Positions 17,776 through 20,700 of a DNA stretch of 64,000 bases are shown here, piece after piece. The translations under genes were made by a program, and so were the position numbers. Location of the stretch: assembly GCA_964633115.1 (NCBI GenBank), contig CAZWEO010000005.1, forward strand, positions 109-64,108. The letters are read 5' to 3'. Under the pieces are notes generated by a model. It searched no databases and was not told where the DNA came from. It saw only the letters and a list, made by a program, of their open reading frames with translations. Position 1 is the first letter of the stretch. The number at the start of each line of letters is the position of its first letter. Source of the DNA: an uncultured Desulfobacterales bacterium. GTDB taxonomy: Bacteria; Desulfobacterota; Desulfobacteria; Desulfobacterales; B30-G6.

Positions 17776-20700
17776 ATGGAGACACTATACGACTTTTTCG
17801 CCAAGCCTAAAGATCCGAAATCTTACAAAGGAGTCCGCATTTCATTGGCCTCCTCAGAACAGATTCGTCAGTGGTCCAGTGGCGAGATCAAAAAACCGGA
17901 GACGATTAACTATCGAACATTCAAGCCGGAACGCGATGGTCTTTTTTGTGCCAAGATATTTGGTCCCACCAAGGATTATGAGTGCAACTGCGGTAAATAT
18001 AAACGCATGAAGCACCGTGGCGTTATTTGCGAAAAATGCGGTGTTGAGGTCATTCAATCCAAAGTCCGGCGTGAACGTATGGCTCATATTGCGCTGGCCA
18101 CACCGGTTTCGCATATCTGGTTTCTAAAAAGTCTGCCCAGTAAAATAGGGAACTTGTTGGATTTAACCCTTAAGAACATGGAAAAAGTTCTCTATTTTGA
18201 CAGCTATATCGTGATTGATCCCAAAGATACGGGTCTGAGCAAATGTCAATTGCTGACGGACGAGAAATACCGTGAGGCCCAAGAGCTATATGGAGATAAG
18301 TTTGAAGCCGGTATCGGGGCCGAAGCCGTTAAACGGCTATTGGAAGAAATCGATCTGGATGCCCTATACGGGCAATTGCGCGAGGAGATCCGGGCGACCA
18401 ACTCGGTGGCCAAACGCCAGAAGCTTTCCAAACGGCTTAAAATAGTGGATGCCTTCCGGCGTTCCGGAGTTAATCCAGTCTGGATGATCATGGATGTGAT
18501 ACCGGTGCTACCACCGGATTTGCGTCCCTTGGTCCCCCTGGAGGGCGGGCGCTTTGCAACCTCGGATCTGAACGATCTGTATCGTCGCGTCATCAATCGC
18601 AACAATCGTCTCAAGCGATTGGTGGACCTCAAAGCGCCTGATATCATCGTGCGCAATGAGAAACGTATGCTGCAAGAATCGGTGGATGTCCTTTTTGATA
18701 ACGGCCGTCACGGACGGGTGATTACGGGTACCAACAAGCGGCCCTTAAAATCTTTGAGCGACACGCTCAAGGGGAAACAAGGACGTTTTAGACAGAATCT
18801 ACTGGGTAAACGCGTGGACTACTCCGGACGAACGGTTATCTCGGTGGGGCCTGAGTTGCGGCTGCATCAATGTGGACTGCCTAAAAAAATGGCCTTGGAA
18901 TTATTTAAGCCATTTGTCTATTACCGCTTGGAACAAAAAGGGCTGGTTTCCACGGTAAAAAGTGCCAAGAAAATGGTCGAAAAGGAAATCCCGGAAGTAT
19001 GGGATACACTGGATGAGGTCGTCAAGGAATACCCGGTGCTCCTCAACCGCGCCCCCACGCTGCACCGTCTGGGTATTCAGGCCTTTGAACCCACACTCAT
19101 CGAAGGCAAGGCGATTCAATTGCATCCCTTGGTTTGCACCGCTTTCAATGCCGATTTTGACGGTGACCAAATGGCCGTGCATGTGCCCCTTTCGGTCGAG
19201 TCCCAGATCGAGGCGCGGGCGCTGATGCTGTCCAGTAACAATATCCTATCACCGGCCAATGGCAGCCCCATCATCGTGCCCAGTCAGGATATCGTTCTGG
19301 GGATATACTACATGACACGTTCCATCGACGGCGCCAAGGGCGAAGGCAAGTTGTTCGCCAATCCCGAAGAGGTTCGTTCGGCCTATGATGCCCGTTCGGT
19401 GGGGCTGCATGCCCGCATCACTGTTCGGATTGCAGGTGAGCGTGTGGATACGACGGTGGGCCGGATCTTGCTTTGGGAGATCATGCCGCGGGAATACATT
19501 ATGCGTTTACGCCATATTATGGTGTCGGGTGAGGATATGGCGCGCGAGATCGTGGAAAAAATCAACTCAGGCGATAGCTTCATCAGCCTGGTGGGAACGC
19601 ATTCCGAAAGCGACGATAAACGCTATGAAGGTGATATTGGGTTAGTCAACCATAGCGATTTGAATGAATATTTTAAAATTGATAGCGCCGATGCCGCCAC
19701 TATTTTCACGCTTAAGCCGGGTGAAACCAGTAACATCATCATGTCCAATGATCTATCTTTTCACCTGTTTGAAGCCATTGAAAAGCGACCGGAAATTCCA
19801 TTTCAGGTGGTCAATAGGGTCATGGACAAAGGTGAACTTCGCAAACTGGTGGATTATGCCTATCGGAACCTGGGGCCTAAAGCAACCGTCATCCTGGCTG
19901 ATCGTTTAAAGAATATCGGCTATAAATACTCCACCAAGGGCGGGTTGTCGATTTCCATCGATGCCATGATTATTCCGGAAGCAAAATGGGATATTCTTCA
20001 GGCGGCTGAGAAACGGGTTGCCGAGATCGGTCGGCAATATACCGAGGGTTTGATTACCCAAGGTGAGAAATATAACAAGGTCGTGGATATCTGGGCCAAA
20101 GCGACCGATGATGTAGCCAATGAAATGATGGATTCCATGAAAACTACCCCAACCCGGGATGAAGCCGAGAGCAGTGCGTCGGATGAGGATGGTCAACCGG
20201 GATCCATGGATAGCCTCAATCCTATCTTTATGATGGCCGATTCTGGGGCGCGGGGCAGCAAAGATCAGATGCGCCAATTGGCTGGGATGCGTGGACTTAT
20301 GGCCAAGCCCTCCGGTGAGATTATTGAAACGCCGATTACAGCCAACTTTCGCGAAGGTTTGTCGGTGTTGCAATATTTTATATCGACACATGGTGCCCGC
20401 AAGGGTCTGGCTGATACAGCCTTGAAGACCGCCAACTCGGGCTACCTGACGCGCCGACTGGCCGATGTGGCCCAGGATTGCATTATAACCGAACACGACT
20501 GTGGCACCATGCTGGGCGTGGAGGTCGAACCGCTGATGGAAGGCGGGGAGGTGATCCAACGTCTATCCGAACGTGTATTAGGACGTACAGCCCTGGAAGA
20601 TATCCTGGATCCATTCACCGATAAAGTCCTGGTGAAGACCGGCGAGGAAATCGATGAAGCCGCCGTGGATTTAATTGAAAATGCCGGTATAACCCGGGCC

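Follow-up and report, generated by a model that had tools for sequence, protein, structure and literature searches.

A parvulin-fold domain inserted into the RNA polymerase beta' subunit of Desulfobacterales

The analyzed stretch of DNA (64,000 nucleotides from an uncultured Desulfobacterales bacterium, hereafter the window) contains rpoC, the only copy of this gene in the genome. The 1467-residue product was identified as the beta' subunit of RNA polymerase (RNAP) by its Pfam domains PF04997, PF00623, PF04983, PF05000 and PF04998. The features considered here are listed in Table 1. In the neighboring str operon (22346-24508) rpsL, rpsG and tuf follow one another, fusA being missing between the last two, and the two tuf copies (one in this operon, the other at 8272-9465) are 99.7% identical at the DNA level. 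Ribosomal protein L17 (38718-39380) carries a tail of about 100 residues past its Pfam domain, rich in Lys, Glu, Ala and Pro. A glycogen cluster (48339-59070) codes for a 1437-residue alpha-amylase/debranching-enzyme fusion, phosphorylase, glycogen synthase and branching enzyme.

Table 1. Features of rpoC and of the domain inserted in its product (window positions).
Feature	Position	Strand	Remarks
rpoC, host gene	17776..22179	+	in rplKAJL-rpoBC-rpsLG-tuf cluster
Host PF04983 (Rpb1 domain 3), first part	19240..19491	+	profile positions 1-80/82; stops at insertion point, E. coli beta' ~585
Inserted parvulin (PpiC-type) domain	19492..19791	+	aa 573-672
His580, first of the dual-His motif (Pin1 H59 position)	19513..19515	+	His in 29/40 inserts
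Ser612 (catalytic Cys/Asp position) and Asp614 (Pin1 S115 position)	19609..19617	+	PrsA/SurA register
Remodelled proline-pocket segment	19636..19704	+	I621, L629 (Phe in 32/40 inserts), F633, ~6 extra residues
Last beta-hairpin	19744..19770	+	T/S network position (S657 or N658), His663, Phe665 (invariant in inserts)
Host PF04983, resumption	19792..19962	+	profile 110-160

Compared with insert-less relatives, the window protein has an extra segment of exactly 100 codons (gap of 100 in the window locus L001 and 0 in L073-L099), in agreement with the original prediction of an in-frame insertion at these coordinates. Since the Glu at the junction can be assigned to either side, the insert comprises residues 573-672 (19492-19791) or 574-673. 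Alignment maps the insertion point to E. coli beta' 585/587, close to the predicted residue 585. It falls inside PF04983; matches to this profile cover positions 1-82 and 110-160 and leave 83-109 unmatched. This host domain presumably lines the pore, and we take the receiving loop to face the secondary-channel and alpha-subunit side.

Cyanobacterial RpoC2 starts at about residue 676 of the window RpoC (8h3v_B 5-70 aligned with query 180-245); the cyanobacterial RpoC1-RpoC2 junction is described in the available text of PMC10895346. According to Table 2 of PMC11515920, the archaeal domain beta'-aD2 (561-598) interrupts the same host domain, and by arithmetic on that table it appears to lie at about the same point as the insert, which fits the unmatched profile positions 83-109. 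The cyanobacterial chain break and the archaeal insertion thus indicate that the loop tolerates both breaks and insertions. The uD3 site of the insert is not one of the seven beta' sites listed in section 2.4 of PMC11515920.

The proposed parvulin identity was borne out. The excised insert matches the Pfam family PF00639 (Rotamase) with an E-value of 2e-6 and a score of 29.1 bits against a cut-off of 21.7; with PF13616, also named in the original prediction, and with PF13145 the scores are under the respective cut-offs. Rotamase is not reported by Pfam for the full-length RpoC, and only 1 of 18 RpoC relatives carries a precomputed Rotamase label. PF00639 is matched by 55 of 61 homologous inserts (E<=0.01), and a profile built from such inserts retrieves PrsA (1zk6) with an E-value of 1.9e-14. 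Sequence and structural model together assign the insert to the parvulin fold, a beta-sheet with four helices around it; in the model, two long strands (residues 574-583 and 662-672) connect the domain to its host, and two helices (626-633 and 637-643) are predicted in the pocket segment. Around Ser612 and Asp614 the insert aligns with PrsA and SurA in gap-free register, and it is 97-100 residues long in 79 of 80 loci. An insertion of the BEAN or HABAS (SBHM) type is ruled out by the sequence and the model, which give the unrelated parvulin fold. The phospho-specific Pin1/Ess1 type was rejected as well: the extended basic beta1-alpha1 loop is absent, the corresponding loop being short and gap-free with PrsA, and the alignment of Pin1 to the insert starts only at query residue 17-18.

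It is scarcely credible that the segment is an assembly chimera, an intein or another mobile insert removed before function. The GC content of the insert (0.44) is at the low end for rpoC, which might suggest such an origin, but codons 51-180 of the gene are equally low. Numerous independent assemblies show an insert of this length at this site, and identical junctions are present in the single-contig genomes G041, G064 and G089, so that a chimeric assembly, the outcome that would have overturned the original prediction, does not account for them. As predicted, no intein was found: neither the insert nor the full RpoC matches an intein family in Pfam, and the parvulin fold accounts for the entire segment.

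The insert is a class-wide trait that extends to nearly the whole order and not an oddity of one genome, as the survey of relatives proposed in the original prediction revealed. The domain is present within an RpoC-sized frame in 40 of 41 evenly drawn genomes of the class, covering 20 families, the exception being G079; the genomes are related, and counts across them are therefore not independent. In a wider sample, 240 of 251 genomes were matched. The insert is lacking in five matched genomes, namely G079 and four from family f59. The remaining 235 were taken as carriers by score (E below 1e-44), with 150 rows of matches listed; 30 weaker or split cases were inspected. Three further genomes (G021, G034 and G058) are insert-less. 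Outside the order, a contiguous match was found in none of the 86 matched genomes (88 sampled), and the gap at the site is 0 in all 27 genomes measured. Carrier records are mostly labelled Desulfobacterales or Desulfobacteraceae and include the cultured Desulfosarcina cetonica (L110). A few carriers have other labels; two of them (L148 and L173) are near-identical to other carriers (flank dS 0.06-0.07), and we therefore treated their labels as noise. By all these observations (in-frame position between shared regions, confinement to a clade and absence from relatives) the insert is a lineage-specific RNAP insertion.

Several loci deviate from the common pattern. In the insert-less f21, f45 and f59 lineages there are short extra residues at the site. 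About 25 extra residues follow the first helix of the insert in L201-L204 (family f54, genera g57 and g75). In L185 and L183 (G069 and G118, family f51) a tandem duplication of about 35-40 RpoC residues lies directly upstream of the insert, and the open frame of 2433 residues in G118 may be an rpoB-rpoC read-through. In L068 (G015:C12:26718-27454), from a genome of the same order, the frame changes within the insert, owing either to an assembly error or to a broken gene.

Phylogenetic trees were derived from 756 flanking columns. G021, which has a zero-gap junction, is placed as the sister of all carriers (FastTree 0.93; SH-aLRT 83), and this position fits a single gain near the class base. 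G079, in turn, is nested among carrier congeners with flanks of 90-93% nucleotide identity, and 93 codons are deleted in frame; the domain has thus been dispensable at least once. A loss-free history can be rejected (p 1.6e-8, with 44 of the 79 rows). In free trees the remaining insert-less lineages also fall among carriers, but in the tests neither a topology that keeps them outside the carriers (p 0.096) nor one shared loss (p 0.66) was rejected. One loss is therefore firm, provided that the G079 assembly is correct, and two to four are possible. As for the source of the domain, the exported multi-parvulin foldases P0032, P0028, P0031 and P0044 supply domains that are among the best-scoring ones outside RpoC (53-64 bits, in a list of 150 representatives). 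As in the insert, the loop is short and the corresponding segment contains additional residues; unlike the insert, these foldases have signal-peptide-like N-termini, two domains and, as judged by eye, an intact D-H-H-S/T set. An exported PrsA/SurA-like foldase is a possible donor, to be regarded as a lead.

The parvulin tetrad is defined as C/D-H-H-T/S in the available text of PMC4922055, in which 0.7% activity is given for D42A and 3.5% for S82A. As a reference for the 40 evenly sampled inserts we used 41 free parvulins out of 89 matched in the same genomes, picked mostly by score and as short PpiC-sized frames (the misaligned G071 histidine was set by hand). The full tetrad is found in 0/40 inserts as opposed to 20/41 free parvulins. 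Both histidines together with T/S occur in 6/40 and 36/41, T/S at its position in 11/40 (19/40 by a lenient count allowing -4 to -6) and 41/41, and both histidines in 27/40 and 36/41, respectively. Neither histidine is present in 7/40 inserts; among 71 non-redundant inserts, 54 have both. The conserved Gly preceding the last strand is retained in 7/40 inserts and in all 41 free domains. Cys or Asp occupies the catalytic position in 2/40 inserts versus 20/41 free parvulins, but within the class this position is a weak discriminator because 16 of the 41 free parvulins have Gly there. Free PpiD/PrsA-like parvulins (L231-L269; G000 C33 and C42) often have Gly at this position and keep the other tetrad residues. 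Judged by these residues, the tetrad is decayed in the inserts relative to free parvulins, and enzyme activity is likely lost.

The window protein keeps both H580 and H663, as originally noted, along with Asp614 and perhaps Ser657 (its T/S slot is N658 by spacing and S657 by alignment, with a one-residue insertion there); only the Cys/Asp position, aligned with Ser612 as predicted, is clearly altered. Pin1 C113S, for comparison, reportedly has lowered but not abolished activity (available text of PMC6976032). In f37, the family with the most genomes (50 of 250 in the wider sample), all six inserts sampled lack both histidines, yet E628, F629 and F665 are kept. Asp614 is present in 25/40 inserts and together with both histidines in 22/40; it accompanies H580 in 23 of 29 cases and occurs in 2 of the 11 inserts without H580. 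By analogy with Pin1, in which H59 hydrogen-bonds S115, the residue at the Asp614 position (PMC6976032, same text), this pairing can be structural.

The substrate-binding segment had been described as diverged, and the pocket is indeed remodelled. Its positions L122, M130 and F134 remain hydrophobic (I621, L629 and F633 in the window protein), with shifts across the inserts to Phe at the M130 position (32/40) and to Thr at the L122 position (6/40). An aromatic residue occupies the M130 as well as the I159 position (pocket residues according to the same part of PMC6976032) in 32/40 inserts, as opposed to 2/41 free domains.

The domain is retained as a protein under purifying selection, with a constraint laxer than that on the core. 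The dN/dS survey suggested in the original prediction gave a median for the insert of 0.20 (own dS) or 0.23 (flank dS), with a maximum of 1.01, and 0.059 for the flanks (45 non-overlapping pairs, including two that repeat the same genomes). In pairwise comparisons of 71 non-redundant members, identity averages 35% over the insert and 69% over the flanks. Two insert-specific positions, E/D628 (39/40) and F665 (40/40), are kept even in divergent families. The most conserved positions look structural, and a dN/dS near 0.2 would be compatible with no more than a requirement for correct folding. Of the 40 inserts, 33 carry a negative net charge; the median is -5, against +1 for free parvulins.

On balance, we favor a folded but non-catalytic module on the surface of RNAP, one that can be lost and whose role is to brace the enzyme or to dock a partner. 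A parvulin domain, probably gained once near the class base, sits in frame in a beta' loop, the insertion being tolerated presumably because the N- and C-termini of a parvulin adjoin and the loop is permissive. The domain would persist folded and likely non-catalytic, with its pocket probably narrowed by two phenylalanines; a docked partner might, at a guess, be on the secondary-channel/alpha-subunit face. Among the options of the original prediction a module binding some putative partner remains the likeliest, whereas nothing in the analysis spoke for an action on coupled ribosomes. There are precedents for this view: TbPar42, though inactive as a parvulin, has kept the ability to bind peptide (available text of PMC6468809) and illustrates that activity is not decidable from sequence alone, and deletion of the E. 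coli beta insertions i4 and i9 causes minor defects (available text of PMC2939025). A rather unlikely but serious competitor is a tolerated passenger of the permissive loop, folded only since misfolding would harm an essential subunit and persisting as exact deletions are rare. The four times laxer dN/dS, the low identity relative to the flanks, the clean loss in G079, the short extra residues of insert-less f21, f45 and f59 and the roughly 25 residues added inside the insert in L201-L204 would all suit a passenger. However, the domain has been kept in all but one of the evenly drawn genomes even though a precise in-frame deletion did occur once, its length hardly varies, and positions 628 and 665 are fixed across divergent families.

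We find it doubtful that the insert functions, perhaps weakly or in re-tuned form, as a prolyl isomerase or peptide-binding chaperone tethered to RNAP and acts via a remodelled S612-D614-H580-H663 network on a proline of a nearby subunit or of a transcription factor. The retention of both histidines in most inserts, their frequent combination with D614, the association of D614 with H580 and the still hydrophobic pocket are in keeping with such an enzyme, and tethering could compensate for a low catalytic rate. The built-in isomerase of the original prediction is weakened, however, by the missing full tetrad and by the f37 inserts, which retain the domain without either histidine. Moreover, the D614-H580 pairing can be structural, and so, according to the title of a cited paper, is the dual-histidine motif. 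Equally doubtful is a bacterial built-in counterpart of Pin1/Ess1 on Pol II, in which the tethered domain would isomerize prolines or read proline peptides with a re-tuned Ser/Asp/His site and would switch or capture a subunit linker or a transcription factor. Binding of DNA or RNA, such as a backtracked transcript exiting the secondary channel, is very improbable: the location in PF04983, a domain that we assume to line the pore, speaks for it, and the predominantly negative charge disfavors it. GreA was found in genomes both with and without the insert (5/5); in G000, greA (G000:C53:1148-2065) is immediately upstream of an omega-subunit-like gene. The favored module, folded and probably non-catalytic, would function in the manner of other lineage-specific insertions; it belongs in the parvulin fold family and should not be classed as an active parvulin.

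Literature on parvulins or prolyl isomerases in connection with RNA polymerase or Desulfobacterales yielded no description of the insert, which may be listed in Lane and Darst 2010, Iyer et al. 2004, supplements or database annotations. The RNAP survey PMC11515920 (main text and one supplement) and the available text of its preprint contain no parvulin, rotamase or PPIase, and none of the three is mentioned in the available text of PMC13114784. In published surveys bacterial RNAP insertions are drawn from a few recurring folds, and a foldase-derived domain fixed in beta' throughout a class of sulfate reducers widens this set. At this permissive loop the insert is the third event to have arisen independently, and, if gained near the class base, it is a clade marker. 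The cultured carrier, one family without both histidines and one genome with an exact deletion constitute a natural experiment. If the domain is active or binds a factor, it would add a new layer of bacterial transcription control.

The two other events in the same loop differ from the insert in kind: the cyanobacterial and plastid RpoC1-RpoC2 split is a chain break, and archaeal beta'-aD2 is an unrelated small domain, neither involving a parvulin. The closest domain family comprises the parvulins PrsA, SurA (P1 and P2), PpiD, Par10/PpiC and Pin1/Ess1 (PF00639, PF13145, PF13616). Compared with these, the insert is embedded in a cytoplasmic essential enzyme and has an incomplete tetrad, Phe at the M130/I159 positions, Asp at the Ser115 position and about six extra residues after the F134 position. 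TbPar42 resembles it in being a parvulin fused to another protein with a partly altered tetrad, and, according to the available text of PMC6468809, keeps weak peptide binding; in contrast to the insert, it is eukaryotic, FHA-fused and of the Pin1 type with a phosphate loop, and its inactivity was measured, whereas we infer that of the insert. With other lineage-specific RNAP insertions (BEAN, HABAS/SBHM and sLC; E. coli beta i4 and i9 and beta' i6/SI3) the insert shares the placement of a folded domain in a loop on the surface of a large subunit, inheritance within a clade, conservation lower than that of the core and, in some cases, dispensability. Unlike them, it has a fold borrowed from a protein-folding enzyme.
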